Shown here in pieces: positions 1,677-63,643 of a stretch of 64,000 nucleotides of DNA (within the stretch, counting starts at the first letter, position 1; every line of letters begins with the position of its first letter). The position numbers and the translations under genes were made by a program. Below the pieces are notes generated by a model. It did not search any database. It saw only the letters and a list, made by a program, of their open reading frames with translations, and had not been told where the DNA came from. This DNA is from a virus. Its lineage: Duplodnaviria > Caudoviricetes. The DNA is taken from positions 4,091 through 68,090 of the IMG/VR virus record IMGVR_UViG_642918882_000001. One strand, given 5' to 3'.

Positions 1677-1747
1677 CCCCTTCCCGTCGGGTACTTCCCG
1701 ACTCCGGCTCGATGACACCATAATACCGACTTCTGAGGGTATGTCAA
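1677..1747 (-). promoter_or_regulatory. repeat cassette (promoter, hairpin, SD); stem variant GTCGGG/CCCGAC
   Basis: TTGACA TACCCTCAGAAGTCGG TATTAT ... GTCGGG AAGTA CCCGAC GGGAAGGGG TCATC ATG. Confidence 0.8.
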
Positions 1748-1775
1748 CCCCGACCAGCGAGGTAATATCCGCACC

Positions 1776-2111
1776 ATGGCAGACCTCGGAGAACACGTCC
1801 TCGTCGGAATCGTCTACGTGCTGGCCGTCATGCGGATCACCCGGTTGATCAACTGGGACGCGGTGCTCGACCGGCCGCGCGCGGCGCTCATCCGGTTCAC
1901 GCGAGGGAACCCGACCGTCGTGTACTTCCTGACCTGCCCGTGGTGCGTCGGATTCTGGCTCACGCTCGCGACGGCGTGGCTGCCGTTGTATGCCTCGGAT
2001 CACGCTGTGGTCCGGTACCTTGGCGTTGCGCTGGCCGCGTCGATGCTCATCGGATTGTTCGCCCCGCTCTCGGCGGACGACGACCTCGAAATGGAGGAAG
2101 ACAAGCCGTGA
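1776..2111 (+). CDS. membrane protein, DUF1360-like
   Basis: RITRLINWD...LTCPWCVGFW motif and hydrophobic segments. Confidence 0.75.
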   Translation: MADLGEHVLVGIVYVLAVMRITRLINWDAVLDRPRAALIRFTRGNPTVVYFLTCPWCVGFWLTLATAWLPLYASDHAVVRYLGVALAASMLIGLFAPLSADDDLEMEEDKP

Positions 2112-2140
2112 TCGACACCCTGGACGGATACCGTTAGCCG

Positions 2141-4045
2141 GTGGCCGCAACTCAGTCCCTCCGCCTTGTGCGTCGTCCGAAGGGCGGCAGGCCCGCCCCT
2201 TCGCGCGCTCTGACGGCGGCGTCGCAGCCGCTCCCCGACCCGTCGCAGGTGTTCTCGAAGTCGACGGGGATCAGCCGGAACTCCGACTGGCAGACCGACG
2301 CGTGGGAGGCTGTGGACCTCGTCGGCGAGCTTCGGTACTACGTCGGGTGGCGCGCGTCGTCCTGCTCCCGCTGCCGGTTGGTCGCGTCCGAACTGGACGA
2401 GAACACCGGATTGCCGACCGGCGGCATCTCCGAGGACAACACCGAGGGCGAACGCGTCCGTGAGATCGTCTCGAAGATCGCCGACGGGACACTCGGCCAG
2501 GCGGCGCTCACGAAGCGCGTGGTCGAGTGCCTCACCGTCCCCGGCGAACTGTGGATCGTCATCCTGACGCGGCCGGTCAAAGGCGCACCAGCACAGCCGG
2601 ACGGATCCGTGCGGACCCGCCAGGAGTGGTACGCGGTCAGCAAAGAGGAGATCAAGAAGTCGAACAAAGGCTCAGGCACCAACATCGTGCTGCCGACCGG
2701 CGAGGAGCACGAGTTCGTCAAGGGCACGGACATCATCTTCCGTGTGTGGATCCCCAAGCCGCGCAAAGCATCTGAACCCGACTCCCCGGTCCGCGCCGTG
2801 CTCGACTCGATCCGCGAGATCGTCCGGACGACGAAGACGATCGCGAACGCGTCGAAGTCGCGCCTGATCGGCAACGGCGTGCTGTTCGTCCCGCATGAGA
2901 TGTCCCTCCCGGCCGCTCAGGGTCCGGTGTCGGAGGTCGAAGGCGAAGAGATCGCGCCGCTCGTCGGCGAACCGGCCGTGCAGCAGTTGACGGACATGCT
3001 CTTCCAGGTCGCGGAGACGGCCGTCGAGGACGAGGACTCGCAGGCGGCGTTCATCCCGGTCATCGCCGGTGTCCCCGGCGAGCAGATCAAGGATGTCAAG
3101 CACATCCGGTTCGACAACGAGATCACCGAGGTCGCGATCAAGACGCGGAACGACGCGATCGCCCGTCTCGCCATGGGCCTCGACGTGTCGCCGGAGCGCC
3201 TGCTCGGGCTGGGATCCCAGACGAACCATTGGTCGGCATGGCAGATCTCCGACGAGGACGTGCAGCTTCACATCGCGCCGGTCATGGAGATCTTCTGCCA
3301 GGCGTTGACGGACCAGATCCTCCGCGTCACGCTCGCGCGCGAGGGGATCGACCCGTCGAAGTACGTCGTTTGGTACGACGCCTCTCAGTTGACGATCGAC
3401 CCCGACAAGAGCGACGAGGCGAAGTTCGCCTACGAGAACGGCGCGATCAACGGCGAGGCGCTGCGTAAGTACCTGGGCCTCGGCGACGACGCCGGTTACG
3501 ACTTCACCACACGCGAGGGGTGGGTCATGTGGGCGCAGGACGCGGTGTCCAAGGATCCGACGCTCATCCCCATGCTCGCGCCGCTCATCGCCGGGGTGCT
3601 CCAGCAGATCGAGTTCCCGCAGCAGCAGCAGGCCATCGACTCCGGCGGGAACGAGGACACGTCGGACGACGACAACCTGGACGACGGCGAGCATGAGCCG
3701 GACACCGAGGACGACCAGGACGACGACGGCACGCAGAAGGCTGGCCTCGAGTCCGGGATCGTGGACCTCATGGTCGACCGCGCCCTCGAACTCGTCGGGA
3801 AGCGGCGTCGCGGCCGGGACCGCGAGACGCTGGCCCGTCTGTCCGGCGTCCGCGAGCGGGACTACCACCGCTACATGGATCCGGTGCCGGAGTCTGAGGT
3901 CGATCGGCTGATGTCCGGTTGGGACTCCGCGCTGGACGACAAGATCCTGCTTCGGCTGGGCCTCGATCCCGGCACGATCCGCTCCGCCGTCCGGCGCAAG
4001 GTGATGGCCGAACTGACGAGGCCGGTGATCGACGTTGTGGCCTGA
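2141..4045 (+). CDS. portal protein
   Basis: 634 aa, between terminase and protease; NHWSAWQI motif seen in actinophage portals. Confidence 0.85.
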   Translation: MAATQSLRLVRRPKGGRPAPSRALTAASQPLPDPSQVFSKSTGISRNSDWQTDAWEAVDLVGELRYYVGWRASSCSRCRLVASELDENTGLPTGGISEDNTEGERVREIVSKIADGTLGQAALTKRVVECLTVPGELWIVILTRPVKGAPAQPDGSVRTRQEWYAVSKEEIKKSNKGSGTNIVLPTGEEHEFVKGTDIIFRVWIPKPRKASEPDSPVRAVLDSIREIVRTTKTIANASKSRLIGNGVLFVPHEMSLPAAQGPVSEVEGEEIAPLVGEPAVQQLTDMLFQVAETAVEDEDSQAAFIPVIAGVPGEQIKDVKHIRFDNEITEVAIKTRNDAIARLAMGLDVSPERLLGLGSQTNHWSAWQISDEDVQLHIAPVMEIFCQALTDQILRVTLAREGIDPSKYVVWYDASQLTIDPDKSDEAKFAYENGAINGEALRKYLGLGDDAGYDFTTREGWVMWAQDAVSKDPTLIPMLAPLIAGVLQQIEFPQQQQAIDSGGNEDTSDDDNLDDGEHEPDTEDDQDDDGTQKAGLESGIVDLMVDRALELVGKRRRGRDRETLARLSGVRERDYHRYMDPVPESEVDRLMSGWDSALDDKILLRLGLDPGTIRSAVRRKVMAELTRPVIDVVA

Positions 4046-6467: not shown

Positions 6468-6673
6468 TGGGGTGCAACTGCAACTCGGGCCGGAAGCGCC
6501 GCGAGGCTCTCGCCGCCGGTAATCCGATCCTCGGGTATCGCGTGATCCTGCCGGACGGGACGATCACGCCGCCGGAGGACAAACCGCCGCTGTTCTCTCA
6601 GATCGAGGCCCGCGCCGTGGTTCGTCAGGCCGGTGGCGGCACGACGCGGGAGATCCGGCAGAACCCGGTCTAG
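6467..6673 (+). CDS. small hypothetical protein (MGCNC...)
   Basis: TGATG coupling to the upstream gene. Confidence 0.7.
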   Translation: MGCNCNSGRKRREALAAGNPILGYRVILPDGTITPPEDKPPLFSQIEARAVVRQAGGGTTREIRQNPV

Positions 6674-6680
6674 TGGGTTT

Positions 6681-6744
6681 CCTCTCCCGGCGGGTCAATA
6701 CCGCCTCACGTCCTTGACAATACCACATACGTCGGGGTTGTCAA
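6681..6744 (-). promoter_or_regulatory. gene-less (orphan) repeat cassette, antisense to head genes
   Basis: TTGACA ACCCCGACGTATGTGG TATTGT ... GGCGG TATTGAC CCGCC GGGAGAGG AAACCCACTAG, with no start codon after the SD. Confidence 0.7.
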
Positions 6745-6852
6745 ATTCCTGCACCGCCGTTCTCTACGGTTCCGTCCTGAGAGTTCCTGAACTGGCTGCG
6801 GGCCGGGGAGCGATCGACCGAACGTCCAGTTGACGCTACATAGGAGACCCCC

Positions 6853-13323: not shown

Positions 13324-13434
13324 TCACTCGGGCCAACGGGGGACGACCTTCCCGTCGACCACGGTGTACTCGCCGTCGGTGTACTCGTCCACGCTGATAC
13401 CGAGGGCTTCGGCTTTTTCGAGGTAGCTCTGCAT
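13324..13434 (-). CDS. 36-aa protein not in ORF track (MQSYLEKAEALGISVDEYTDGEYTVVDGKVVPRWPE)
   Basis: Complete cassette and SD GGAGG upstream, terminator downstream, GC3-rich codons. Confidence 0.75.
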   Translation of the reverse strand: MQSYLEKAEALGISVDEYTDGEYTVVDGKVVPRWPE

Positions 13435-13440
13435 CTCAAT

Positions 13441-13506
13441 CCTCCGCTTCCGGCGGGTCCGTCCCGCCTGCGTGAACTACAATACCACAATAGTCGGGGT
13501 TGTCAA
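13441..13506 (-). promoter_or_regulatory. repeat cassette
   Basis: TTGACA ACCCCGACTATTGTGG TATTGT AGTTCACGCA GGCGGG ACGGA CCCGCC GGAAGCGGAGG. Confidence 0.85.
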
Positions 13507-13546
13507 CATCCCGCTTCGCCGCAGGCCTACGCGGTACCCTCACCGT

Positions 13547-35338: not shown

Positions 35339-36037
35339 TCACGCCTTGCTCGCGCACACCGGTCCGAGGCCGCGCTCGATGCTCTCCTGCTTGGTCAACG
35401 GCGACGCGCACCGTCCGCAGCGTCCGTACACCTGGCCGAACTTCGCCGCCTGGTCCGGCGTCATCCGGACCAGCCGGGGATTGCGGGCGAGCGCCATGCC
35501 GCCGTACTCCCACTCGATCTCGGCCGGACGCATCTTGCCGGTCGGGCTGTCGGCGGCGTCGACCTTCTCGGTGATCACGCCGACGAACTTCGCTCCGACC
35601 TGCTTATTCGCGCCGTGAACGGTGTGGTAGAGCTTCACGATCGTGTCGCCGAGCATGTAGAACCCGTCCTCGCGCTCGGTGCTGACCGCCTGGTCGCGGT
35701 CGACCGTCTTCAACCGGCCGATCAGGTCGCTCGCCTCGCTGATCGCCAACGGTTCCTGATTGGCGGCGATCAGGATCGCGTTGATCATCTCGCCGTCGGT
35801 GCCCTTGCCCGCCAGGATCGCCTTCGCGGACTCGGGGATCTCGTCCAGGTCGCGGCTGTCGACCCACCGGAGGGCCACCGACACGATCGCCGTGCGAGCG
35901 ACGAACTCGGCGTCATCGACGGACTTCCAATCGCGCTCGGTGAGCAGCGTCCGGATGAAGCTCAACTGCGGATCGCTCGCGGGCCGGACGTACTGCGCGG
36001 CGGCGACGCGGGACTTGGTGTCGAAGGGTGTTGCCAT
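35339..36037 (-). CDS. DUF6011-like Zn-finger protein under repeat cassette
   Basis: C-terminal CGRCASPLT..ESIERGLGPVC. Confidence 0.75.
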   Translation of the reverse strand: MATPFDTKSRVAAAQYVRPASDPQLSFIRTLLTERDWKSVDDAEFVARTAIVSVALRWVDSRDLDEIPESAKAILAGKGTDGEMINAILIAANQEPLAISEASDLIGRLKTVDRDQAVSTEREDGFYMLGDTIVKLYHTVHGANKQVGAKFVGVITEKVDAADSPTGKMRPAEIEWEYGGMALARNPRLVRMTPDQAAKFGQVYGRCGRCASPLTKQESIERGLGPVCASKA

Positions 36038-36042
36038 GGTGA

Positions 36043-36106
36043 CCTCTCCGGCGGGTCCATCCCGCCTCCGTGGGATTAACAATACCATTGTTGTCGGTAT
36101 TGTCAA
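36043..36106 (-). promoter_or_regulatory. repeat cassette (perfect ACAATACC-N9-GGTATTGT)
   Basis: TTGACA ATACCGACAACAATGG TATTGT ... GGCGGG ATGGA CCCGCC GGAGAGG TCACC ATG. Confidence 0.85.
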
Positions 36107-36141
36107 ACCCCGACCGCACCGACACCGGCTACAGTGACGAC

Positions 36142-40707: not shown

Positions 40708-40889
40708 CAGGCCCACGCCTCGACGTATGCCAGCTCGGCGGCGACCTGGCGGCGGACTTCGCGGCGCTCGATGCGGCGGGCCTCGCGCCGGGTGCGGCGG
40801 CGGTCTGCGGAGCACTGGCGGCGTCCGCAATGGCACGCGGCCTTGGTCACGTGCGCGTCGTGATGGGTCTTGATCAGCATCGCTGCCAT
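40707..40889 (-). CDS. 60-aa Arg-rich protein under repeat cassette
   Basis: ATG follows the cassette SD; TGATG coupling to the exonuclease. Confidence 0.7.
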   Translation of the reverse strand: MAAMLIKTHHDAHVTKAACHCGRRQCSADRRRTRREARRIERREVRRQVAAELAYVEAWA

Positions 40890-40894
40890 GTCGG

Positions 40895-40957
40895 TCCCTT
40901 CCGGCGGGTCCGTCCCGCCTTCGATGACCACAATACCACGGTGCTCGGGATTGTCAA
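40895..40957 (-). promoter_or_regulatory. repeat cassette
   Basis: TTGACA ATCCCGAGCACCGTGG TATTGT ... GGCGGG ACGGA CCCGCC GGAAGGGA CCGAC ATG. Confidence 0.85.
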
Positions 40958-40977
40958 CGTCACGCCTCCGCTGAAGG

Positions 40978-42990: not shown

Positions 42991-43030
42991 GGGTGGCTCG
43001 TTTCGTTTGGCGGGTGGCGGGTTGCGGGGT

Positions 43031-43088
43031 GTCCGGCGGGATCGCCGCCGGACAACACCGACAATACCGAATGATGATGAATTGTCAA
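43031..43088 (-). promoter_or_regulatory. degenerate repeat cassette upstream of the helicase
   Basis: TTGACA ATTCATCATCATTCGG TATTGT then hairpin GTCCGGCGG-CGATC-CCGCCGGAC. Confidence 0.65.
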
Positions 43089-43447
43089 TTGCGCGGCTTG
43101 AGCGCGGCGTTCGCGGCCTGTACCGCGTCGATCAGGGTCCGGCCGTATCCGGCGGTGATGACCAGGCCGGGGTAGCACTTCGGGGACGGATCCGCGTCGG
43201 AGCCGTAGAGATCGGGGTCGACCGGGAACGGCTCGGTGTCGCGGATGATGCACGACCAGCCGTACTCGCTGCACTGGAGGTCGGCGTGGACGTACTTCGT
43301 ACGGGAGAGGCGACGGGCCTCGTCCATCAGGCCGTCGAGAACTTTGCTGCTGGGGGACACGGAGAACCTTTCGATGATGATGGTCGCGATGACGGCGGCG
43401 GTGGGGCTGAGCACGGAAACCGTGCCCAGCACCCACGCGGGAACCAT
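43085..43447 (-). CDS. hypothetical membrane-anchored protein
   Basis: TAATG coupling; N-terminal hydrophobic segment. Confidence 0.6.
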   Translation of the reverse strand: MVPAWVLGTVSVLSPTAAVIATIIIERFSVSPSSKVLDGLMDEARRLSRTKYVHADLQCSEYGWSCIIRDTEPFPVDPDLYGSDADPSPKCYPGLVITAGYGRTLIDAVQAANAALKPRN

Positions 43448-46472: not shown

Positions 46473-47213
46473 TCAGGGACGGTGCCGGTCGGCGGGACAC
46501 TCCGGCTTGATCATCGGCGAACCGTGGTCACATATGCAGACAATACCGACCCGGTCGGGATTGTCAAGCAACGTGCTCGGGTCCGACGGATCGCCTGCGG
46601 AGACGAGGTAGTGGTACGACGCGCCGGGGTTCTCCGCCATCCCCTTCGCCGCCTCCGGCGTGAGCAACCCGACCTCGACGGCCGACTGCGGCTCCGCGTT
46701 GTGCATCGGGAAGATACCGACGGCGCGGCGGACCGACTCCAGCGGCGGCGGGTCGATCGGGTTGTCAAGCCAGTCCTGGCAGTACCACCGGGCCTTGTCC
46801 ACGTCCTCCCGGTCGTCGGCCTTCCCGCCGAACCCGACGCGCCAGAGGTACTTGACCGCCGTCGCGAGCCGCATGTCGCGGATGTGCCGGATGACCTGGA
46901 TGCACTGGACCGTGAACCGGTGCTCGCACTCCGGACACTGCACCTCCGGCCCGCGACGGTAGTGGGGCGGGTGATTGACCATGTCGACCTCGTACCAGCG
47001 GTGGATCGGGCACGTCTCGTCGTACGGAGCGTTCAGGGACGGCGAGCACGTGCATTCCTTGGGGGTGCCGGGCGGCAGGACGGGCATGGATACCTCTCTC
47101 GGGTTGAACTTCATCGGGTTGTCGCAGGACGGCAGGTGGACCCTGCGCCCCTCGGAGTCGGCGGCGTTGAGTTCGTCGTCGGCGAACTCGCGTCCGCAGT
47201 CGTGGCAGGTCAT
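46473..47213 (-). CDS. DUF3310-like protein
   Basis: DMVNHPPHY...AVKYLWR...EDVDKARWY. Confidence 0.75.
   Translation of the reverse strand: MTCHDCGREFADDELNAADSEGRRVHLPSCDNPMKFNPREVSMPVLPPGTPKECTCSPSLNAPYDETCPIHRWYEVDMVNHPPHYRRGPEVQCPECEHRFTVQCIQVIRHIRDMRLATAVKYLWRVGFGGKADDREDVDKARWYCQDWLDNPIDPPPLESVRRAVGIFPMHNAEPQSAVEVGLLTPEAAKGMAENPGASYHYLVSAGDPSDPSTLLDNPDRVGIVCICDHGSPMIKPECPADRHRP
46539..46567 (-). promoter_or_regulatory. operator/promoter part of the cassette embedded in coding sequence upstream of the primase
   Basis: TTGACA ATCCCGACCGGGTCGG TATTGT; near-perfect palindrome GACAATACCGACCCGGTCGGGATTGTC. Confidence 0.7.
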
Positions 47214-50738: not shown

Positions 50739-51085
50739 CGGACACCGCCGGACATGCTCGCGGCGACGATGGACAAGGCGCGGTCCTCGGGGATCCCGGC
50801 CCGCTCGTTCACGGCGGCGACGTACGCGCGCTGCCACTCGGCGTCGCCGTACGGGGCGGGCCACAGTTCGAGGTACCCGCCGACACGGCACGCGGCGACG
50901 ATCCCGATCAGGTCGTCGCGGTAGAGGGCGACACCGCGCTCCGCCGACACGACGTGCAGGCCGAGGGCTTCCTTCTGGCCGCAGGGGGAGCAGATGTACT
51001 CGGGGACGTACCGGCTCAGCGCGTTACGCGCCTCGACCGGATTCATGTCGTTCCCGCAGAGCGGGCACCGCTTCGACTGGGACAT
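50735..51085 (-). CDS. Zn-ribbon protein under variant cassette
   Basis: CPLC...NALSR...ICSPC. Confidence 0.7.
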   Translation of the reverse strand: MSQSKRCPLCGNDMNPVEARNALSRYVPEYICSPCGQKEALGLHVVSAERGVALYRDDLIGIVAACRVGGYLELWPAPYGDAEWQRAYVAAVNERAGIPEDRALSIVAASMSGGVR

Positions 51086-51091
51086 TTCGAT

Positions 51092-51157
51092 CTCCGTTCC
51101 GCCGGGTCGATCCCGGCTTCGTGGACAACACTGGCACGGCTGGTGGACCAGTGTCAA
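51092..51157 (-). promoter_or_regulatory. variant cassette with a different inverted repeat
   Basis: TTGACA-N18-CAGTGT on ACACTGG-N13-CCAGTGT; hairpin GCCGGG ATCGA CCCGGC then GGAACGGAG. Confidence 0.7.
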
Positions 51158-51161
51158 CACC

Positions 51162-54542: not shown

Positions 54543-54677
54543 TTACGCGAAGTGGGCGTCGAACGCGGCGAAAAGGTCATCGACGGTCTCGATGCCGTCG
54601 GCGGCGAGGTCGGCGGCGATCTCGGCGCGGGCGATACGGGCTGCGACGCGGGCGGTGCGGATGACGAACTCGTTCAT
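54543..54677 (-). CDS. 44-aa protein not in ORF track (MNEFVIRTARVAARIARAEIAADLAADGIETVDDLFAAFDAHFA)
   Basis: Complete cassette upstream. Confidence 0.75.
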   Translation of the reverse strand: MNEFVIRTARVAARIARAEIAADLAADGIETVDDLFAAFDAHFA

Positions 54678-54683
54678 GGTGTT

Positions 54684-54748
54684 CCTTTCCCGGCGGGTCC
54701 ATCCCGCCTGCACACCAAGAACAATACCACAATGGTCGGGGTTGTCAA
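54684..54748 (-). promoter_or_regulatory. repeat cassette
   Basis: TTGACA ACCCCGACCATTGTGG TATTGT ... GGCGGG ATGGA CCCGCC GGGAAAGG AACACC ATG. Confidence 0.85.
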
Positions 54749-54776
54749 GTCATCCGCCGGAGGTAATCTGCGCGGA

Positions 54777-55940: not shown

Positions 55941-55949
55941 GCACCAAGA

Positions 55950-55980: not shown

Positions 55981-55994
55981 CTGCGGCCGGAGGC

Positions 55995-56207
55995 CTACGC
56001 GATCGTGTACTCGTAGAGGCTGGCGATCTTCCATCCGCGCTCGCCGACGCGTTCGTGGAGACGGCCGGACTGCCCGTTCCCCTGGAGCTTCACGTCGTGC
56101 TCCTCCACGAAATCGAGGAGCGCGCGGCGGGCCTTGGCGGCGTCTTCGTGCTCGCTCTCGACCACAACGCTGGAGTCGGCGGTGGCGGTGATGGTCAGCT
56201 TGGTCAT
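55995..56207 (-). CDS. 70-aa protein under repeat cassette
   Basis: ATG follows the cassette SD. Confidence 0.75.
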   Translation of the reverse strand: MTKLTITATADSSVVVESEHEDAAKARRALLDFVEEHDVKLQGNGQSGRLHERVGERGWKIASLYEYTIA

Positions 56208-56213
56208 GGGGAT

Positions 56214-56276
56214 CCTCTCCGGCGGGTACGTCCCGCCTTCATGATCCCATAATACCACGGTTGTCGGGATTGTCAA
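56214..56276 (-). promoter_or_regulatory. repeat cassette
   Basis: TTGACA ATCCCGACAACCGTGG TATTAT ... GGCGGG ACGTA CCCGCC GGAGAGG ATCCCC ATG. Confidence 0.85.
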
Positions 56277-56602
56277 CACGGCGACGCCGCCAGGTACAGG
56301 TGCTCGGCCAGCCACGCCGCCGAGCGCCGGTCACGGCAGATCCGCGTCGTGGCACGCTGGCCCTGACGGTGCGAGCACAGGTCGCAGTGCGGAGCGATGT
56401 TTTCCCGCCGGTACGTGCCTCCCCGCTCGCAGGGGATGATCCTGTCGGCGAAGAGGTCCACGTCGTCCGGCCCGCACAGCACGCCGCACTCCCAGCACGG
56501 CACCGTCTCGCCATCGCCGCCCCAGCCCGCCTCCGGCGACAGGAGCCACGCCTTGCGCCGTGCCCGGTCGACGGAGTTGCCGCGATGGTTACCGTTAGGC
56601 AT
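56273..56602 (-). CDS. HNH endonuclease-like protein
   Basis: CWEC...DRIIP...GG....NI...CDLC. Confidence 0.8.
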   Translation of the reverse strand: MPNGNHRGNSVDRARRKAWLLSPEAGWGGDGETVPCWECGVLCGPDDVDLFADRIIPCERGGTYRRENIAPHCDLCSHRQGQRATTRICRDRRSAAWLAEHLYLAASPC

Positions 56603-56693
56603 CGCGTTGCTCCCAACGCTGGCGCTGGTAGTCGATGCCGATCGCGAACCCCTGGACGAACCCCAGGACGAGGACGAACAGGTTCCCGGTCAT
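56595..56693 (-). CDS. 32-aa TM peptide
   Basis: ATGA overlap; hydrophobic core. Confidence 0.45.
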   Translation of the reverse strand: MTGNLFVLVLGFVQGFAIGIDYQRQRWEQRDA

Positions 56694-57176: not shown

Positions 57177-57525
57177 CGGGAACACCTCCCCAGCATTCCG
57201 GCCACAACTCGCCGACCTCGCACTGGTCGAACGTGGTCGGCGTGCCGTCGGTGACCGTCCCCTGCCACTCGGGATTGTTCAGGTCGCGGATCGTCATCGA
57301 CCACTGGTCCGGCCACGGGATGAGCTGCGGAGGTGTGCCCGGCGTGCAGACCGGCGGGTTGCCGGAGCACACCGGCGGCGTGCCGGGGATCATCTGCACC
57401 CACGCTGGCGTGAACTCGCGGTCGATCACGGTGCCGTGGGCCGGTACCGGCTGATCGCCGCCGCACGCCGCGAGGGGCGCGATCAGGGCCGCGAGAGCGA
57501 CCGCCACTGATGCACGCTGCATCAC
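57169..57525 (-). CDS. putative lipoprotein
   Basis: Signal peptide with LAAC lipobox. Confidence 0.7.
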   Translation of the reverse strand: MMQRASVAVALAALIAPLAACGGDQPVPAHGTVIDREFTPAWVQMIPGTPPVCSGNPPVCTPGTPPQLIPWPDQWSMTIRDLNNPEWQGTVTDGTPTTFDQCEVGELWPECWGGVPGA

Positions 57526-57854
57526 GGGTTCACCTCCGCTCTCATCTGGCGCTCTGCCTGCTCGAATGCGAATAACGCCTCACGGTTGGCGTCGAGGAAC
57601 ATCATCAGACGTTCCTCGCTGGTGCCGCCGACGGCTTTACGTGCGGACACCCACTCGACTCCGGCGGTCCACGCGATGATGTCCATAACCAGACGGCCGT
57701 GAATGCCCATGTTCTTCCAGTGGGCATAGTCGACGTACCCTGCCGGTGACCTCCATCCGAGGCGTTCGGTGCCGACCAGAACCTTGAGCAAGGTCCACCC
57801 GAGATCGGCACATAGTTCTGTCAACGGCTGATCCGGATCGCTCTCCGCACTCAC
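57522..57854 (-). CDS. hypothetical protein with atypical codon usage, flanked by 16-bp direct repeats
   Basis: GGAGGTGAACCCGTGA at both ends. Confidence 0.6.
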   Translation of the reverse strand: MSAESDPDQPLTELCADLGWTLLKVLVGTERLGWRSPAGYVDYAHWKNMGIHGRLVMDIIAWTAGVEWVSARKAVGGTSEERLMMFLDANREALFAFEQAERQMRAEVNP

Positions 57855-57866
57855 GGGTTCACCTCC
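57522..57866. repeat. 16-bp direct repeat at 57522-57537 and 57851-57866
   Basis: tcacgggttcacctcc occurs twice; both upstream ORFs end EVNP*. Confidence 0.85.
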
Positions 57867-58138
57867 AAACCACAGGCCTGCCGGAGCAGGTTCTCGATGC
57901 ACCAGCCGGGGTCGGCGTGGACGCGGGTGCCGTCGGTGAGCGACACCGTGACGGTCAGCTCGGGGAGGTGCGTGTACTCATCGCCGTAGTCGCTGGTCCC
58001 CTGGTCGCCCTCGGACCACGTCACGTCGATGCCGGAGATCTCACGGGCCTCGACGGTCATCGACCGCTCGGGCCTCATCCACCCGAAGGCCAACCGGCCG
58101 CTGACGTGGTCGGCGAGGGCCTCGCGGAACGCGGTCAC
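57851..58138 (-). CDS. hypothetical protein
   Basis: GTGA overlap. Confidence 0.6.
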   Translation of the reverse strand: MTAFREALADHVSGRLAFGWMRPERSMTVEAREISGIDVTWSEGDQGTSDYGDEYTHLPELTVTVSLTDGTRVHADPGWCIENLLRQACGLEVNP

Positions 58139-58323
58139 AGGTCGAACCACTCGTCGTAGGCGTCCGACACGGCGCTGTCCAGGGTCACGTCGCCGTAGCG
58201 ATCGTTGACCATGGCGTCGGCCGCGAGCTGCGCGACTCCGTCGATGTCGTTGGCGTCCATGACGCCGTAGGCGATGACCGCGTCGCGGATGACGCTGGGC
58301 TCGGGGATCGTGATCGCTGCCAT
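58135..58323 (-). CDS. 62-aa acidic protein under repeat cassette
   Basis: ATG follows the cassette SD. Confidence 0.75.
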   Translation of the reverse strand: MAAITIPEPSVIRDAVIAYGVMDANDIDGVAQLAADAMVNDRYGDVTLDSAVSDAYDEWFDL

Positions 58324-58328
58324 GGGTT

Positions 58329-58392
58329 CCTCTCCCGCCGGGTCCGTCCCGGCTTCTGGTGACTACAATACCACGGTTGTCGGGATTGTCAA
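58329..58392 (-). promoter_or_regulatory. repeat cassette; stem variant GCCGGG/CCCGGC
   Basis: TTGACA ATCCCGACAACCGTGG TATTGT ... GCCGGG ACGGA CCCGGC GGGAGAGG AACCC ATG. Confidence 0.85.
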
Positions 58393-58416
58393 CCCACCTC
58401 GTGGCCTCGGTCAACG

Positions 58417-58611
58417 TCAGATGTCGAGCCCGCCTCGACGCAGGTTGGCGATCGTGTTCTTGACCGATCGCCAGTCCGACGCCGACGACGCGATGACCGC
58501 GATCATCCGGCCCTCGACATACACCTTGTAGTGCCCGTTGCGCTTCGACTTCTCGACCGTCGCCCCGGCATTCTCGGCCATGGCGATCAGGTCTTGGCAT
58601 TCCTTCGACAT
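58417..58611 (-). CDS. HicA-like (dsRBD-fold) protein
   Basis: 64 aa with pattern G.TVE....GHYKV.....SSASDWRS..N....LRR.G. Confidence 0.7.
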   Translation of the reverse strand: MSKECQDLIAMAENAGATVEKSKRNGHYKVYVEGRMIAVIASSASDWRSVKNTIANLRRGGLDI

Positions 58612-58625
58612 ACCCCGCCTGCGGC

Positions 58626-58781
58626 TCACAGCGCACCGCCGTGGGTGTCGCAGACCGTCGCGGACCGACCGCACAGCTCGCCCTGTCCCTGGGCTTCCAG
58701 GGCCGTCGCGATGCGTTCGAGCGCGTCGATGGCGCGCTCCGCCAGCTTTACCACCTGGCGTGTGTCCGGCATACCGAGCAT
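58626..58781 (-). CDS. 51-aa protein
   Basis: SD GAGAGG; ALERIATALE coil. Confidence 0.55.
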   Translation of the reverse strand: MLGMPDTRQVVKLAERAIDALERIATALEAQGQGELCGRSATVCDTHGGAL

Positions 58782-58855
58782 GGGGATCCTCTCGTAGATG
58801 GCTGTCCTACCCAGCCGATCCCGGCCCCCTCGCGGGGACCGGGTGGCTGTGGCGG

Positions 58856-59215
58856 CTACCAGCGGGCCGGGACTCCGGCGGCGACGCCTTCGCGCACCTT
58901 CCGCTCCGCGATAGCGCGGGCCTCTTTGAGCGTCCGGACGTAGGTGTACTTGCCGCTGGTCTCGGGGTCGATGTAGTTGCCCTCGTCGTCGTAGAGCGGG
59001 GCCTGCCAATCGTTGACTAGGTAGGTCTTGTCGGCTCCGTACGCCTCGATGAACACCTTGTGCGACCGCGCGACGACGACGCGCGTGTCCCCCATCTTGA
59101 CTCCGAAGCCCTTCACCGTGCCGCGCTTCAGCCGGACGGGGAACTCGATCACGTCGAGCTTGGCAGCCTCGGCGGTGGTCTCGGCGGTGGTCTCGAACAA
59201 CATTGCCTCGGTCAT
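58856..59215 (-). CDS. 119-aa protein under repeat cassette
   Basis: ATG follows the cassette SD; hairpin 58812-58849 downstream. Confidence 0.75.
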   Translation of the reverse strand: MTEAMLFETTAETTAEAAKLDVIEFPVRLKRGTVKGFGVKMGDTRVVVARSHKVFIEAYGADKTYLVNDWQAPLYDDEGNYIDPETSGKYTYVRTLKEARAIAERKVREGVAAGVPARW

Positions 59216-59220
59216 TTCGA

Positions 59221-59283
59221 CCCTTCCCGGCGGGTCCATCCCGCCTCCACAAAGAACAATACCACAATGGTCGGGGTTGTCAA
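59221..59283 (-). promoter_or_regulatory. repeat cassette
   Basis: TTGACA ACCCCGACCATTGTGG TATTGT ... GGCGGG ATGGA CCCGCC GGGAAGGG TCGAA ATG. Confidence 0.85.
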
Positions 59284-59495
59284 CACCGTGCCGGAAAATT
59301 CCATCCCTCGACGTGATTGTGCTGGTAGAACAACCGGTCGACGCGATCGGAGGCCCAGTGGAGATCCAGTTCCCAGGCGATCTGGACGTAGATCGGGTTA
59401 CGCCGGATGAACGCCTGAGCCATGTGGTTGTGCTCGACGTGGGCAGGGCACTCGATGTCGTTTCGGCGATCGGCGCAGGTGCAGGGGTACATCAT
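59280..59495 (-). CDS. hypothetical protein
   Basis: SD GAGGAGG. Confidence 0.55.
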   Translation of the reverse strand: MMYPCTCADRRNDIECPAHVEHNHMAQAFIRRNPIYVQIAWELDLHWASDRVDRLFYQHNHVEGWNFPARC

Positions 59496-59872
59496 CCCCT
59501 CCTCTCGTCCACGCCGGTCCACGCCTTGTCGTGCGGAGGCGCGAGGCCGTTGCTGGTCGCGAGCACGGCGTTGCAGTACCGGCACATGCCCTCACCGACG
59601 CGGGACATCTGCAACTCGCGGCCGACGCCGGGACACGGGCCGGGAGGGTTCTGCCCGATCCTGCGCTGATCGAACCCCTCCTGAGGGGCGTCGACCACGG
59701 CGGGCCTGCGGACGCACCAGGCGTCCGGCAGGGAGCCACCACGACTCAGCCATCCGTCGATCGCCAGCACCAGTTCGGCCATCCGGCCGGTGTCGGCGTG
59801 ATCGCTGCGGCTCTCGTCCACGTGCTCGGCGGCGATGCTCCGCAGTTCTTCGAGAGCGGCCTCGATGTCCAT
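59492..59872 (-). CDS. hypothetical protein
   Basis: LDGWLSRGG.LP..W-like motif; coupled to neighbours. Confidence 0.6.
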   Translation of the reverse strand: MDIEAALEELRSIAAEHVDESRSDHADTGRMAELVLAIDGWLSRGGSLPDAWCVRRPAVVDAPQEGFDQRRIGQNPPGPCPGVGRELQMSRVGEGMCRYCNAVLATSNGLAPPHDKAWTGVDERRG

Positions 59873-60051
59873 CACCACTTCATCCCTTCGCACTCGCAGC
59901 CCTCGATCTTGCACGGTCCGGAGTTGGGCCGGTGATCACTCCGGAAGTGCCCACAGCGACGGTCGTCGCAGAGGTTGTTCGGCCCCTTGCGCGGCTTCCT
60001 GGCGGCGGACGCCGCGCCACGGAAGGCGCGGGTCCGCGACGGCGCGCTCAC
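59872..60051 (-). CDS. small Cys/His-rich protein
   Basis: CGH...H...C....C.C. Confidence 0.5.
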   Translation of the reverse strand: MSAPSRTRAFRGAASAARKPRKGPNNLCDDRRCGHFRSDHRPNSGPCKIEGCECEGMKW

Positions 60052-60470
60052 CGCGCGTTCTCCGGATGGAACGGGCACTCGTCAAAATGACGGCGTCCGG
60101 CGGTCGCGGCGCAGACCGGGCAGTCGCTCAGGGTGGTCTCGTCGGCGTCGACCGGCTCGGAGATCAGGCCCCGCAGATAGGTGAGGTTCTCGACGTGCTG
60201 CTCGTCGGCCTCGATCCGGCGACGGATCGCAGCGGCGTCGCGGCGAGCCTTCTCGGCAGCGGCGTCGACACCCATCTGACGGCCGATCGTGAGACCGGTC
60301 TCGAACTCGACCTCACGGCGCGAGTCGCGGGTATGTCCGGCGAGCAGGGTGCCGTCGGTCCGGTAGACCATGGCGGTGTAGGTCGCGCGCAGGTCGGCGT
60401 CGACCTGCTTGGTGTAATGCACCACGAAAGCGCCGTGGAACTCAACCTTGGTGTCGATGATGCCGGTCAT
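60048..60470 (-). CDS. 140-aa protein under repeat cassette
   Basis: ATG follows the cassette SD. Confidence 0.75.
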   Translation of the reverse strand: MTGIIDTKVEFHGAFVVHYTKQVDADLRATYTAMVYRTDGTLLAGHTRDSRREVEFETGLTIGRQMGVDAAAEKARRDAAAIRRRIEADEQHVENLTYLRGLISEPVDADETTLSDCPVCAATAGRRHFDECPFHPENAR

Positions 60471-60475
60471 GATGA

Positions 60476-60541
60476 CCCCTTTCTCGGCGGGTCCGTCCCG
60501 CCTTCTGATAACCACAATACCACGGTTGTCGGTATTGTCAA
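60476..60541 (-). promoter_or_regulatory. repeat cassette (perfect ACAATACC-N9-GGTATTGT)
   Basis: TTGACA ATACCGACAACCGTGG TATTGT ... GGCGGG ACGGA CCCGCC GAGAAAGGGG TCATC ATG. Confidence 0.85.
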
Positions 60542-60557
60542 CACCGGATCCCGCAAC

Positions 60558-60594
60558 GAAAAACGACCGCCCTGGTGGACCCAGGACGGCCGTT
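60558..60594 (-). terminator. intrinsic terminator with U-tract
   Basis: Minus strand AACGGCCGUCCUGG-GUCCA-CCAGGGCGGUCGUU followed by UUU. Confidence 0.7.
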
Positions 60595-60612
60595 CCTCGT
60601 CACCCGGCCGGA

Positions 60613-61101
60613 TCAGTAATGGTCGAACGGACTCTCGATCAGGCCGCCGCGTGCGAAGCCGCCGCGAGGTGCGCGAGACCGGGACGGACGCTCGTCCAGC
60701 ACGGCCCCGAACGGACCCATGACCTCGCGGACCGCCTCGACCTCTTCGGACGGCTCCGGACCGAGACGCTCGCCCTCGGTCATCAGGTGGAGCGTCGGCC
60801 AGTTCGCCTTGCCGACGAACTCCAACAGGGCGGGCCAGTTGAACCGGTCGCGGGTCTCACCGGTCAGCGCCCACCGGACGCTGCGGCCGACCCGCCAGCC
60901 GACGGCGGCGAAGGCGTACTCGCGTCCGGACATGTACTTGCGGAAGGCGACGACGACCGGCTTGTCGGCCAGCACCTCGGGCATCTTCGGCCTGGCCGCG
61001 ATCTCGGCGAGCCGTGCCGCCTCGGCCTCGGCGACCGCGAGACGGTTCGCCTCTTCCATCAACTTCGCGGCCTCGGCGCGGAGTTCTGCTGCTGTTGCCA
61101 T
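60613..61101 (-). CDS. hypothetical protein
   Basis: SD AGGGG; 162 aa. Confidence 0.7.
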   Translation of the reverse strand: MATAAELRAEAAKLMEEANRLAVAEAEAARLAEIAARPKMPEVLADKPVVVAFRKYMSGREYAFAAVGWRVGRSVRWALTGETRDRFNWPALLEFVGKANWPTLHLMTEGERLGPEPSEEVEAVREVMGPFGAVLDERPSRSRAPRGGFARGGLIESPFDHY

Positions 61102-61132
61102 GGTCCCCTGTTCCTTTCTCCGGTGTCGGGAT

Positions 61133-61161
61133 CCCGGCCGGGGGACGTTCCCCCGGCCGGG
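61133..61161. terminator. 12-bp GC hairpin after the DUF932-like gene
   Basis: CCCGGCCGGGGG-ACGTT-CCCCCGGCCGGG. Confidence 0.65.
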
Positions 61162-61174
61162 TCGTGCTGTGCCG

Positions 61175-62233
61175 TCAGGCGTCGATCAGGGCCTTCGGGT
61201 TGCGGAACGCCTCCCATGCGCGGGCCTTGATCTCTCCGCCGCCGCCGTTGATCGTGCGCAGCGCCCGCTTCACGTCGACGTTGTCCTTGCCACGGACCGG
61301 CATGTAGTGGTCGACCCACTCGGTCACGGCGTTGTAGCCGCCGAACGCGACGCCACGGAAGTCATCGACCGTCGCCGACGACCGGTAGATCTCGAAGGCC
61401 TCCGTCGCCATCTGCGTCCGCTGCGACGCCGACCGCGACTCGGGGTCGACCTTGTCGACCTCGAACACGCTCCGCATGATGGCAAACGTCTCGACGTTCG
61501 ACATCTCGATCTTCGCCATCTCCTCGACCTCGGCGACGTAGGTGTCCTGGTACTTCCACGTCAGGCCCAGGATCCGCCGGACCTCTTCCAACCGGACCTG
61601 CGCCTCCCCGGTGTGCCGGATCGAGACGCGGGACACGGCCGCCCGTTCCGCCATCCGCTGCGTGTTCGCGCAGACGACGCGAACCGGGCTGATGTTCGCG
61701 ACCAGGCTGCCGCCGCCGTCGTGGTGGTTGAAGATCGACAGGTACAGGTCGGTCACGTCGCGCTTCCCGGTGATCGGGCTGACCAGTTCCATGTGGTCGG
61801 GCATCTTCATGGTCACGAAGGTGCGGCGTCCGCCGTCGAGGCTTCCGCCGGTCTCGATCACCGCGCCGGACTCGTCGGTGATGTCGAACAGGAGCTTGGT
61901 CGTCCACTCGTTCTGGAACGGGGTCCAGAACGATCCGACCACCCCGAGAGGCTCTACCTTCCCGTTGATCGGGTTCGTGCGGACCGTGACGAACTTGCCG
62001 GGGATGTCGACCATCTCGGTCTCGTCGTCGCCGCCCTCGGAGAGGTTGGCCTGGAGGGGGATCTTGCGAACGTCCCAGCCCCGCATGTGGGCGGCGTCGA
62101 GGAACTCGTCGGCCGTCATCGCGTGGCCGACCGCCTGGCCGAGCTTGTGCCACGCGTCGACCTTGCCGTTCGCGGAGACGCGGCTGTCGGCGAAGCTGCT
62201 CACTCCGTCCGTGGTGTCGATCTCATGCGCCAT
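61175..62233 (-). CDS. DUF932-like (phage/plasmid) protein under repeat cassette
   Basis: AWHKLG, LGVVGS.W.P.QN, ETGGSL.GG, NHHDG, PVRVVCANT, IRHT and YNAVTEW.DH motifs. Confidence 0.85.
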   Translation of the reverse strand: MAHEIDTTDGVSSFADSRVSANGKVDAWHKLGQAVGHAMTADEFLDAAHMRGWDVRKIPLQANLSEGGDDETEMVDIPGKFVTVRTNPINGKVEPLGVVGSFWTPFQNEWTTKLLFDITDESGAVIETGGSLDGGRRTFVTMKMPDHMELVSPITGKRDVTDLYLSIFNHHDGGGSLVANISPVRVVCANTQRMAERAAVSRVSIRHTGEAQVRLEEVRRILGLTWKYQDTYVAEVEEMAKIEMSNVETFAIMRSVFEVDKVDPESRSASQRTQMATEAFEIYRSSATVDDFRGVAFGGYNAVTEWVDHYMPVRGKDNVDVKRALRTINGGGGEIKARAWEAFRNPKALIDA

Positions 62234-62240
62234 GGTGGAT

Positions 62241-62313
62241 TCCTTCCGTCGGGTGGCGGGTCCGTCCCGCCTGGCTACCCTGTTCACAATACCGAGATCC
62301 TCGGGATTGTCAA
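62241..62313 (-). promoter_or_regulatory. repeat cassette with a 7-nt ACCCGAC insert before the SD
   Basis: TTGACA ATCCCGAGGATCTCGG TATTGT ... GGCGGG ACGGA CCCGCC ACCCGAC GGAAGGA. Confidence 0.85.
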
Positions 62314-62360
62314 CAGGGTGCCGGGACTGTTTTGGCTGGTCACAGCCCCGGCACTCCCCG

Positions 62361-62597
62361 TTACTCGCCGTGGGCAACCCACAGGGCCGCGTGGATGGCG
62401 CGAACACCGGCGGCGTCGAGGTCGATCACGGCGACGCGGGTGCCCATGGAACCGGCGGTGCCCTGCGCGATGGCCTTCCCGAGGTCGTCCCAGGTGATGA
62501 TGCCGACGTTCTCCTGCGCGGCGATCATGCCGTCGAGGAGGCTGCCGCCCTCGACCTCGACCGGCTCGGGGTTGCCCTGCGCGATGTAAACGATCAT
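62361..62597 (-). CDS. 78-aa protein under repeat cassette
   Basis: ATG follows the cassette SD; hairpin 62316-62356 downstream. Confidence 0.75.
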   Translation of the reverse strand: MIVYIAQGNPEPVEVEGGSLLDGMIAAQENVGIITWDDLGKAIAQGTAGSMGTRVAVIDLDAAGVRAIHAALWVAHGE

Positions 62598-62602
62598 GGT
62601 GT

Positions 62603-62666
62603 CCTCTCCCGGCGGGTCCGTCCCGCCTCACACCAACCACAATACCGACATCTGAGGGATTGTCAA
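62603..62666 (-). promoter_or_regulatory. repeat cassette (leftward member of a divergent pair)
   Basis: TTGACA ATCCCTCAGATGTCGG TATTGT ... GGCGGG ACGGA CCCGCC GGGAGAGG ACACC ATG. Confidence 0.85.
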
Positions 62667-62702
62667 CCGACACCGGTGAGATCCACGTCACACCGTCAGG
62701 GA

Positions 62703-62766
62703 TGGACAATCCCGACAACCGTGGTATTGTGGAACACGTAGGCGGGACGGACCCGCCGGAAGGGAG
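62703..62766 (+). promoter_or_regulatory. repeat cassette (rightward member of a divergent pair)
   Basis: TGGACA ATCCCGACAACCGTGG TATTGT ... GGCGGG ACGGA CCCGCC GGAAGGGAG. Confidence 0.85.
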
Positions 62767-62774
62767 CGACAACC

Positions 62775-62948
62775 ATGGCGCAGGACGTGAACCTCGGAGC
62801 AGTGTTCGATGACGCCCTGACCGCCGACGAGTGGTGGGACGAGTTCAACGCGAACGCGTGCTGCCCCGACAGTGTCACCGCAGCCGCCCGCCTGTGCGGG
62901 TGCGGCGGCAGCGGACGTATCCCCACCGGTATCAGCCGGTTGCTCTGA
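62775..62948 (+). CDS. 57-aa Cys-containing protein not in ORF track
   Basis: MAQDVNLGAV...CCPDS...CGCGG...RLL, directly after the cassette. Confidence 0.7.
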   Translation: MAQDVNLGAVFDDALTADEWWDEFNANACCPDSVTAAARLCGCGGSGRIPTGISRLL

Positions 62949-62959
62949 GAGGACATCGC

Positions 62960-63205
62960 ATGATCGAGATCGAAGTCGTCGGCGTGAAGGACGGGCACCC
63001 CGTCCGGCACGTCGAGCGGCAGGACGGGACCACCGTCCAGGCCGCAGTCGAGTGGCTGGACCCCGAAGTCCGCCGCACCATGGGAGAGAAGGTGCTGATC
63101 CGGCACGTAGTCACCGCCGACGAGGACGGCCAGTGCCTCGCGTACCGGCGGGTCGGCGGCGAGATCGTCGCCTTCGCCAACGTCTTCGAGGTGGTCGGAG
63201 AATGA
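62960..63205 (+). CDS. hypothetical protein
   Basis: SD GAGAGG. Confidence 0.65.
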   Translation: MIEIEVVGVKDGHPVRHVERQDGTTVQAAVEWLDPEVRRTMGEKVLIRHVVTADEDGQCLAYRRVGGEIVAFANVFEVVGE

Positions 63206-63438
63206 TCGCCCTGACGATCGCGTACCTCCGCCGGATCCGCGACGAGCGGGACGAGCGGAGGACGCTGGAGGCCATAGCGGACGCCAACCACATCAGGTGG
63301 GCACGCGACCTCGCAGAGCAGCGCCGCGAGGAACGCCGCCGGTTCGAGGCCGCTATGGCGGCGCTGGACGGGTTGTACCTCGTCCCGTGGCACCGGCACC
63401 TGATCGAGAAGCGACTGAGGGGGTCAAGGTGGGGCTGA
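63202..63438 (+). CDS. hypothetical protein
   Basis: ATGA overlap. Confidence 0.6.
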   Translation: MIALTIAYLRRIRDERDERRTLEAIADANHIRWARDLAEQRREERRRFEAAMAALDGLYLVPWHRHLIEKRLRGSRWG

Positions 63439-63584
63439 TCAACGCCGGAGTGATCCTCATGGTGCTCGGCGCGGCAGGGTTCCGCGTCGCGCTCCACTAC
63501 CCGTCGCGCGCTGCCGACGAGGCCTGCGCGTTGCTGGTGCTGGCAGGGGCGGTCTCGATCGTCATCGGGTGCATGGTGGGTTGA
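63429..63584 (+). CDS. small two-TM protein
   Basis: SD GAGGGGG; two hydrophobic segments. Confidence 0.55.
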   Translation: MGLINAGVILMVLGAAGFRVALHYPSRAADEACALLVLAGAVSIVIGCMVG

Positions 63585-63643
63585 CATACCCGACCATTGT
63601 GGTATTGTAGTTCACGGAGGCGGGACGGACCCGCCGGAAGGGA
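63581..63643 (+). promoter_or_regulatory. repeat cassette
   Basis: TTGACA TACCCGACCATTGTGG TATTGT AGTTCACGGA GGCGGG ACGGA CCCGCC GGAAGGGA ACGCC ATG. Confidence 0.88.

Follow-up and report, generated by a model that had tools for sequence, protein, structure and literature searches.

A repeated promoter, hairpin, and ribosome-binding-site cassette in a Pipefishvirus genome and related actinobacteriophages

The genome in IMG/VR record IMGVR_UViG_642918882_000001 (Duplodnaviria; Caudoviricetes) repeatedly carries an element of about 75 bases ahead of its genes, raising the question of whether these copies form one type of expression unit and what its promoter, spacer, and hairpin would each contribute. 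The analyzed stretch of 64,000 nucleotides (nt), hereafter the window, covers bases 4091-68090 of a 68,090 base pair (bp) genome with a G+C content of 66-69% along its whole length. It belongs to a siphovirus of Mycobacterium in the genus Pipefishvirus, subfamily Bclasvirinae, which we take to be the group named subcluster B3 in PhagesDB, and its last 10 kb are 98-99% identical to Mycobacterium phages Devonte, Gervas, Athena, Phlyer, and further Pipefishvirus. The element consists of TTGACA, a conserved 16-nt spacer, TATTGT, 10-14 nt, the hairpin GGCGGG-ANNNA-CCCGCC, a Shine-Dalgarno (SD) sequence, and ATG, and its copies are very probably promoter and leader cassettes for the host sigma factor SigA.

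The window contains 14 complete cassettes, one gene-less copy, and three promoter-type partial copies (Table 1). The set agrees with a preliminary description of the same DNA, including the position of every ATG (12 on the minus strand and two on the plus strand), and all 14 start codons open reading frames (ORFs) of 36-352 amino acids (aa). The pattern GGCGGG-N3-7-CCCGCC occurred 11 times versus 0.21 expected, a count reached in 0 of 100 shuffles, and TTGACA-N15-19-TATTGT occurred 13 times versus 0.00 expected. Allowing one mismatch per hexamer, the promoter pattern gave 18 matches in the window, comprising 16 promoter sites and two reverse-strand reflections (36076+ and 62283+) that come from palindromic copies, and none in the remaining 4090 bases of the genome. 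Scanning for a 6-bp G+C stem with an ANNNA loop identified 17 hairpins, 14 of which had a cassette promoter 10-17 nt upstream and, on the other side, a purine-rich SD and an ATG; for the hairpins at 7191, 10153, and 36415, the preceding 45 nt contained no such promoter. A covariance model trained on 15 copies of the window together with one from Imvubu and one from TPA2 matched the window 15 times at an expectation value (E) <= 7.6e-12 and the partial copies weakly (Table 1), and Rfam gave no match at its gathering score on either strand of the whole window.

The suggestion that the promoters are of SigA type held, as the copies are near consensus with an extended -10 TGn in 9-10 of them (flagged in 7 of 10 copies scanned between 50 and 64 kb, where a consensus promoter scan gave 11 promoter-like sites versus 1.1 expected). 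The -10 box was TATTGT, replaced by TATTAT in two copies, the spacer ended in GTGG in most copies and so created the extended -10, and the SD was of the GGAAGGG type.

A BLAST search with one 74-nt copy returned 53 phage records, made up of 49 Pipefishvirus-type records with 10-12 places each, two of Imvubu, and two of Tsukamurella phage TPA2, and the hairpin pattern occurred in 12 stretches on seven IMG/VR contigs. The covariance search of related genomes called for in the preliminary description (matches counted at E <= 0.01) took the cassette beyond B3, with 14 matches in PG1 (Pegunavirus), eight in Ares (Rosebushvirus), six in Stinger and seven in VioletZ (both Coopervirus), six in LilMcDreamy, nine in Imvubu, ten in Tsukamurella TPA2, and six and three in the Gordonia phages CloverMinnie and Sour, respectively. 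Five further Pipefishvirus genomes held 15-16 matches each at syntenic places, and Skermania phage SPI1 had none. All Bclasvirinae genera tried, Gordonia Sourvirus phages, and TPA2 have the cassette architecture. Among 185,579 species-representative bacterial and archaeal genomes, the combined promoter and hairpin pattern gave four matches and no convincing cassette; all four were rejected as chance, scoring 16-21 bits in the model with none carrying the full cassette. The motif was found solely in actinobacteriophages and the cassette looks phage-only.

Across these phages the -10 box was lineage-specific (TATTGT in Pipefishvirus and Imvubu, TAACTT/TAAGTT in PG1 and LilMcDreamy, TAGTGT in Coopervirus, and TAAAGT/TAATGT in TPA2), as was the spacer. 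That related phages from three host genera have a near-identical hairpin suggests an as yet undescribed control element common to them. The preliminary description knew of no earlier account of the motif, and none was found in full-text searches of the literature, though key reviews, the TPA2 genome paper, and supplements could still hold one.

The hairpin is selected for pairing, in line with the RNA layer envisaged in the preliminary description. When 102 distinct copies, taken from IMG/VR contigs and 11 named phage genomes, were aligned, pairing held in 99.5% of the 603 stem cells and fell to 35-67% when the partner strand was slid. Nine stem cells were changed on both sides (in the two outer pairs), three were G-U or U-G wobbles, and three were unpaired; in the inner CGGG/CCCG, one of the four pairs was invariant and the other three deviated in one or two of 102 copies. 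The variants GCCGGG/CCCGGC, GTCGGG/CCCGAC, AGCGGG/CCCGCT, GACGGG/CCCGTC, and ATCGGG/CCCGAT were observed, with double changes having arisen at several distinct loci and lineages. Parsing left out five copies (the decayed gene-less copy, two from TPA2 with GGTGGG, one from PG1, and one from Imvubu), and among the other 97 the stem was GGCGGG/CCCGCC in 84. The first loop position on the sense strand was A in 95 of 97, bases 2-5 varied freely with the last being A, C, G, or T, and the base preceding the stem was A in 79 of 96. The loop A is strand-specific rather than palindromic. Matched changes, tolerated wobbles, and this strand-specific A argue for pairing in a single strand, i.e., in the transcript. 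Since the hairpin has not drifted between lineages as the promoter did, we infer selection by a partner common to the phages or their hosts; within-genome homogenization alone would predict hairpin drift between lineages and none was found.

All 13 canonical leaders contained the hairpin (-11.1 kcal/mol by itself) in their minimum-energy fold, and most of the SD was unpaired in most leader folds when the dot-brackets were judged by eye. The distance from the -10 box to the hairpin had a median of 11 nt (standard deviation 2.2) and that from the hairpin to the start codon a median of 14 nt (standard deviation 3.5). Position 8 past the -10 box was a purine in 70 of 96 copies and positions 7-8 were pyrimidine-purine in 69 of 96, the usual look of a start site, such that transcription is predicted to begin there. 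The predicted start would leave 3-5 unpaired nt ahead of the stem in 69 of 96 copies.

The spacer contains a weaker 5-bp quasi-palindrome, and its portion A-Y-M-CCGAC is not accounted for by polymerase contacts. Three of the six Stinger cassettes carried the spacer ACCCGACTAAGGCGGGT and the other three its exact reverse complement, PG1 had both orientations of the CCGAC/GTCGG half-site, and VioletZ had a single orientation in six copies, with the seventh being a center variant (TAAG for TTAG). In the present genome most copies had CCGAC at the left, two had it as GTCGG at the right, and two had it at both sides, and in some copies the -35 and -10 boxes themselves were palindrome arms (36079-36106 and 60514-60541). 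An element able to work in either orientation while the -35 and -10 boxes stay fixed would suit a dimeric DNA-binding protein. Of the operator layer originally envisaged, the symmetric element that flips orientation was borne out, and its function as a repressor operator is a prediction that seems plausible while falling somewhat short of an even chance.

A candidate regulator is encoded behind one cassette. A model match near 36-41 kb was present in all nine other cassette-bearing genomes, and in PG1, Ares, and Stinger, for which gene-level synteny was inspected, the annotation places this cassette at the head of an operon between the tail and lysis genes. The operon in the window includes an XRE-like helix-turn-helix (HTH) gene (HTH_31, E 1.8e-5, under the Pfam cut-off) and a gene for a 78-aa protein annotated as HTH, both with 39-55% protein identity across four genera. 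In tblastn searches the XRE-like gene was detected in all nine other cassette-bearing genomes and was absent from the cassette-less SPI1, the 78-aa gene was detected in all ten genomes, and a sigma-region-4-like HTH gene was missing from TPA2. Among PDB sequences, the XRE-like protein had only weak XRE-family matches (E 0.021) and the 78-aa protein had none. A separate candidate, the "RNase E" label of PG1 gp70 (10288-10995) and Stinger gp67 (10633-11220), was rejected as Pfam returned only weak HTH_23, Sigma70_r4_2, and HTH_24 matches; the Devonte annotation calls the window homologue at 53261-53860 (+) (35% identity, E 1e-34) a DNA-binding protein.

In the proposed mechanism, the cassettes would be self-contained expression units read by host RNA polymerase that fire at once upon infection because only the host SigA holoenzyme would be needed, and their timing is probably early. 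The hairpin would act in the RNA 5' end by shielding a short single-stranded end from 5'-end-dependent decay and, given how little its sequence differs among phages of three host genera, may also be read by a conserved partner. The lineage-specific spacer quasi-palindrome would be the operator through which a phage protein shuts the cassette set off, with the XRE-like HTH gene in the universally cassette-driven operon as the best candidate repressor. Taken as a whole, this combination of SigA expression modules, a 5'-terminal stem-loop, and a phage-specific spacer operator stands a little above even, and 5' protection is only tentatively put forward as the main job of the hairpin.

Several points weigh against this interpretation. 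Stability leaves unexplained why one of many equally stable G+C stems was kept, such that a pure stabilizer role would be incomplete, and most known RNA-protein hairpin sites show the opposite pattern to a fixed stem with a variable loop. Spacing between hairpin and start codon is likewise rather tight, so a role in translation would fit as well, and the tie of the hairpin to the promoter rather than to the SD is weakened as both distances are constrained. Four wastewater RNA-library runs provided contigs only, in which genes and gaps were covered evenly and several joints were cross-mapping of other copies, and this material may be DNA. For the operator, the GTGG part of the conserved spacer is merely the extended -10. 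Co-occurrence of the XRE-like gene with the cassette depends on one negative genome and is only a lead, and its identity does not track spacer type in that Imvubu has the B3 spacer and a protein only 41% identical.

An alternative is that the hairpin RNA is a docking site for a conserved factor (a phage protein, the host polymerase, or the ribosome), giving either processive antitermination through the unit-end hairpins or translation control at the abutting SD, with 5' protection secondary. The stem is near-invariant across lineages with diverged promoters, the A residues at loop position 1 and before the stem are conserved, in most copies the hairpin adjoins the SD, many units within co-oriented gene runs have strong hairpins behind them, and the element is present in phages of Mycobacterium, Gordonia, and Tsukamurella, all of which would suit such a factor. 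However, the element is only 17 nt long compared to the larger, two-hairpin HK022 put-type antiterminator RNAs, loop bases 2-5 vary, and the partner is still to be named, which leaves this explanation unlikely. A bolder form, in which the 17-nt hairpin would be a new cis-acting RNA signal read by a machine conserved in the Mycobacteriales (RNA polymerase, ribosome, or RNase), is quite improbable. If true, early phage transcripts would carry the signal as a mark for reading through unit-end hairpins or for privileged translation or survival, which would explain a fixed hairpin in Mycobacterium, Gordonia, and Tsukamurella phages amid changing promoters.

It has also to be considered that the stem-loops stop or attenuate incoming upstream transcription, as in the PeSL cassettes of T4-type phages compared below, and that the repeated cassettes are recombination points that shuffle modules. 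The layout of sigma-70-type promoter, G/C stem-loop, SD, and start codon upstream of ORFans resembles the PeSL units as the accessible text describes them, and the spacer quasi-palindrome is placed where that text locates most PeSL stem-loops. Megablast of the genome against six Pipefishvirus genomes identified 18 distinct large breakpoints within the window, three of which lay <=20 nt from a cassette or promoter edge (40958/40965, 46585, and 51072) versus about 0.4 expected by simple arithmetic on the proportion of sequence lying close to an edge. Relative to Devonte and Pipefish, an indel breakpoint coincides with the 5' edge of the 40887-40960 cassette, and in Pipefish the ORF behind the 51085 cassette was replaced with the cassette retained. 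Wastewater contigs in all four runs joined 56277 to 56574 at a cassette edge with loss of ORF 56273-56602 (-, 109 aa), which ends within the -35 box of the 56205-56279 cassette, is taken to be an HNH endonuclease from a relative's annotation, and looks like a homing-endonuclease insertion beside the cassette. The remaining 15 breakpoints nevertheless lay elsewhere and copy positions were syntenic in five B3 genomes. Moreover, the main hairpin lies downstream of its own predicted start and would attenuate its own transcript, and it lacks the U tract that mycobacterial polymerase reportedly needs. Transcription-stopping shuffling units are an improbable description, and of the gene-shuffling role raised in the preliminary description there remains edge evidence that is suggestive but thin. 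As a separate observation, 40959-41289, between the helicase stop codon and the 5' edge of the 40887-40960 cassette, spans about 330 bp here and 15 bp in Devonte.

It is very improbable that GGCGGG-N5-CCCGCC acts as duplex DNA, as a second operator immediately past the start site for a dimeric phage repressor with no RNA role: conserved arms around a variable center are typical of operators, the spacer element of PG1 and Stinger is built from these 6-mers as well (GGCGGG, GTCGGG, and their complements), and the universal cassette-driven operon includes two conserved HTH genes, but arm changes were matched (nine cells) or wobble (three) as often as or oftener than unpaired (three), a DNA site would not need matched arm changes, and the loop A1 is strand-specific.

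Table 1. Cassette copies in the window with their sequence features and genes; scores are from the covariance model.
Feature	Position	Strand	Sequence features	Start codon and genes	Score
Promoter-type partial copy	1237..1277	-	degenerate -35 GTACAA, spacer CCCGACAACCGTGG, TATTGT		E 0.48
Complete cassette	1669..1750	-	-10 TATTAT; hairpin variant GTCGGG-AAGTA-CCCGAC	ATG 1671; ORF 1375-1671 (-), 98 aa	58.8 bits
Gene-less copy	6670..6747	-	intact promoter, decayed hairpin GGCGGT..CCCGCC, SD	no start codon	61.1 bits
Complete cassette	13432..13509	-	strong hairpin near 13275	ATG 13434; ORF 13324-13434, 36 aa	
Complete cassette, perfect -35/-10 palindrome	36035..36109	-		start 36037; DUF6011 35339-36037; XRE-like HTH 34857-35294; 78-aa HTH 34624-34860	
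Complete cassette	40887..40960	-		ATG 40889; 60-aa ORF	
Promoter-type partial copy	43018..43091 (promoter 43061-43088)	-	TTGACA-16-TATTGT		E 0.024
Promoter-only partial copy	46540..46567	-	palindromic spacer CCCGACCGGGTCGG; no canonical GGCGGG hairpin		E 0.003
Variant cassette (complete)	51083..51160	-	other spacer and -10; GCCGGG-ATCGA-CCCGGC	ATG 51085	53.7 bits
Complete cassette	54675..54751	-		ATG 54677; 44-aa ORF	
Complete cassette	56205..56279	-	-10 TATTAT; loop ACGTA	ATG 56207	
Complete cassette, compensatory stem	58321..58395	-	GCCGGG/CCCGGC	ATG 58323	88.5 bits
Complete cassette	59213..59286	-	hairpin past unit near 58812	ATG 59215; 119-aa ORF	
Complete cassette	60468..60544	-		ATG 60470; 140-aa ORF	
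Complete cassette, longer linker and leader	62231..62316	-	palindromic spacer CCCGAGGATCTCGG	ATG 62233; DUF932 protein	
Complete cassette, flipped spacer half-site	62595..62669	-	..GTCGG before -10	ATG 62597; DUF7280	
Complete cassette	62700..62777	+	-35 TGGACA	ATG 62775; 57-aa ORF	
Complete cassette	63578..63651	+		ATG 63649; 100-aa ORF	

The genes served by the cassettes were compared using the block numbering of the Devonte annotation, transferred on the basis of 98-99% identity. Cassettes head the leftward blocks 9-7, 22, 45-43, 73, and 96-77, i.e., five of the six leftward non-structural blocks, and in the sixth, the replication block 65-48, a cassette lies one gene in at 51085. Block 65-48 starts at a separate perfect consensus promoter, TTGACA-18-TATAAT at 51513-51484 (-), without the cassette spacer; it is followed by GGCCGG-GTCGT-CCGGCC, a G+C pairing located within the DUF7423 gene leader. 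Internal restart points are also served by cassettes or promoter variants (ORF 40889, the helicase at 42990, and the primase/polymerase at 46439), as is the head of the operon reaching DNA polymerase I. The first genes mostly belong to families of unknown function (DUF6011, DUF932, and DUF7280) or to no family in Pfam and PHROGs, and the view that the cassettes define a regulon of small accessory genes was too narrow given the helicase, primase/polymerase, and DNA polymerase I operon. On the plus strand, cassettes occurred only ahead of ORFs 62775 and 63649, the former forming a back-to-back divergent pair with the 62595-62669 copy, and none occurred in the large rightward structural, lysis, and 51.8-55 kb blocks.

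The partial copies differ from one another downstream of the promoter. At 1237-1277 the ATG lies 7 nt past the -10 box with no hairpin or SD, such that the RuvC-like resolvase gene behind it (named from the Devonte annotation) appears to have a leaderless start, a prediction from its sequence. The 43018-43091 copy, upstream of the DNA helicase gene (start 42990), has a different 9-bp hairpin, GTCCGGCGG-CGATC-CCGCCGGAC, 7 nt past the -10 box, followed by a 64-nt C-rich leader, and this hairpin lies far from any SD. About 100 nt separate the 46540-46567 copy from the start (46439) of the primase/polymerase/helicase gene downstream of it. The gene-less copy at 6670-6747 is oriented antisense into head genes. 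Its orthologues in six B3 genomes retained the promoter in all six and differed in the downstream part, where the Pipefish hairpin is canonical with no SD or ATG, four genomes have it decayed, and Phlyer has lost it. This copy is either a kept antisense promoter or binding site, or else the relic of a lost gene.

Stable G+C hairpins were confirmed past the units at 1337, 13275, 55950, 58812, 61133, and 62316, the six places at which the preliminary description had put terminators, and at the genome end. Most of them lack a U tract, and a consensus terminator scan based on T runs over 50000-64000 gave four sites versus 4.0 expected, none of which coincided with the four named sites in that range; termination at these hairpins is therefore putative. 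The 63578-63651 unit closes with a 17-bp hairpin and U-rich run at the genome end; this perfect hairpin, formed by 63951-64000 and the genome start just ahead of gene 1, is the clearest intrinsic-terminator-like site seen, judged from sequence. Between the hairpin at 58812 and the 58321-58395 cassette, 58417-58781 (-) holds two small genes without their own cassette, one being a HicA-like toxin in the Devonte annotation with no Pfam match here. In the cassette-free rightward block, which encodes an RHH_10 protein and the sigma-region-4-like HTH, two 12-bp palindromes at 51775-51830 (CGACACGTGTCG and the one-mismatch CGACACGTGTGC) flank a TTGACA upstream of the rightward gene at 51825 and look like a separate putative operator set for that block.

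The annotated starts of Devonte genes 45, 50, 89, 93, and 78 and of TPA2 orf4 (1314-1829) run into the cassette. Four of 13 matched Devonte genes begin 24-45 nt upstream of the cassette ATG, within the hairpin or -10 box, Devonte gene 78 and TPA2 orf4 span an entire cassette, and PHROG profiles have identical N-terminal extensions. The cassette could be used for start-codon correction in relatives.

Cluster B is among the largest sequenced mycobacteriophage groups with >350 members (PMC9262239), and no described regulatory circuit was found for it. One recognizable unit appears to define its host-polymerase-dependent transcription units. The cassette yields predictions of start sites, corrections of start codons, and a candidate operator-repressor pair, it offers mycobacterial expression tools a compact promoter-leader part, and its near-fixed hairpin is a mutable target for asking how phages keep early messages alive or read through.

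Among known systems, the antitermination RNAs HK022 put and lambda nut boxB are compatible with the cassette hairpin in position and conservation alone, and both differ from it in size and sequence. For B1 phages, at least ten top-scoring SigA-like promoters were reported within the run of about 26 small reverse-strand ORFs at the right genome end (bioRxiv 10.1101/2023.05.30.542743). That promoter stretch is the region of the PG1 cassettes in the covariance model; in the accessible text of the preprint the promoters are predictions, without the shared spacer, hairpin, cassette concept, or cross-cluster comparison.

Morons are promoter-gene-terminator insertions in phage operons (as cited in PMC3029335). 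The moron-like unit at 13275-13509, a promoter, one small ORF, and a 3' hairpin reversed within the tail operon, has this layout, as does 1337-1750, with the terminator putative in both. However, morons are separately acquired and mutually unrelated, whereas the cassette is one control unit reused about 18 times, including for core replication genes, and most copies head conserved operons rather than being insertions.

The analogies drawn in the preliminary description to the SAS/ESAS and PeSL elements, without sequence relatedness, were appropriate. The SAS/ESAS motifs of Cluster K mycobacteriophages (Pope et al., 2011, PMC3203893) share with the cassette, in the portion of that report available, repeated oriented motifs at the starts of non-structural genes, a universal part combined with a subcluster-specific inverted repeat, and a suspected protein or RNA partner. 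In contrast to the cassette, SAS is a 13-bp asymmetric sequence, GGGATAGGAGCCC, at the ribosome-binding site 3-7 bp before the start with no promoter, and its authors judged pairing of the ESAS repeats in RNA to be poorly supported (PMC3203893). Allowing two mismatches, the SAS consensus matched the window once versus 1.74 expected.

The idea and much of the layout are shared with the PeSL cassettes of the T4-type phages RB49 and phi1 (Arbiol et al., 2010, PMC2839356). According to the accessible text, both are small repeated units of a host sigma-70-type promoter, G/C-rich stem-loop, SD, and start codon, which mostly precede small genes without known function but also a few replication genes and are associated with variable regions. 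They have no sequence relation, and the cassette belongs to phages of actinobacteria rather than to a T4-type context. PeSL stem-loops are described there as mostly between or over the -35 and -10 boxes and as shown to terminate, and PeSL mini-circles and recombination have at most a putative counterpart in the cassette. The cassette hairpin, unlike that of PeSL, is predicted to be transcribed from its own promoter, without a U tract and with a near-fixed sequence, 10-14 nt past the -10 box.

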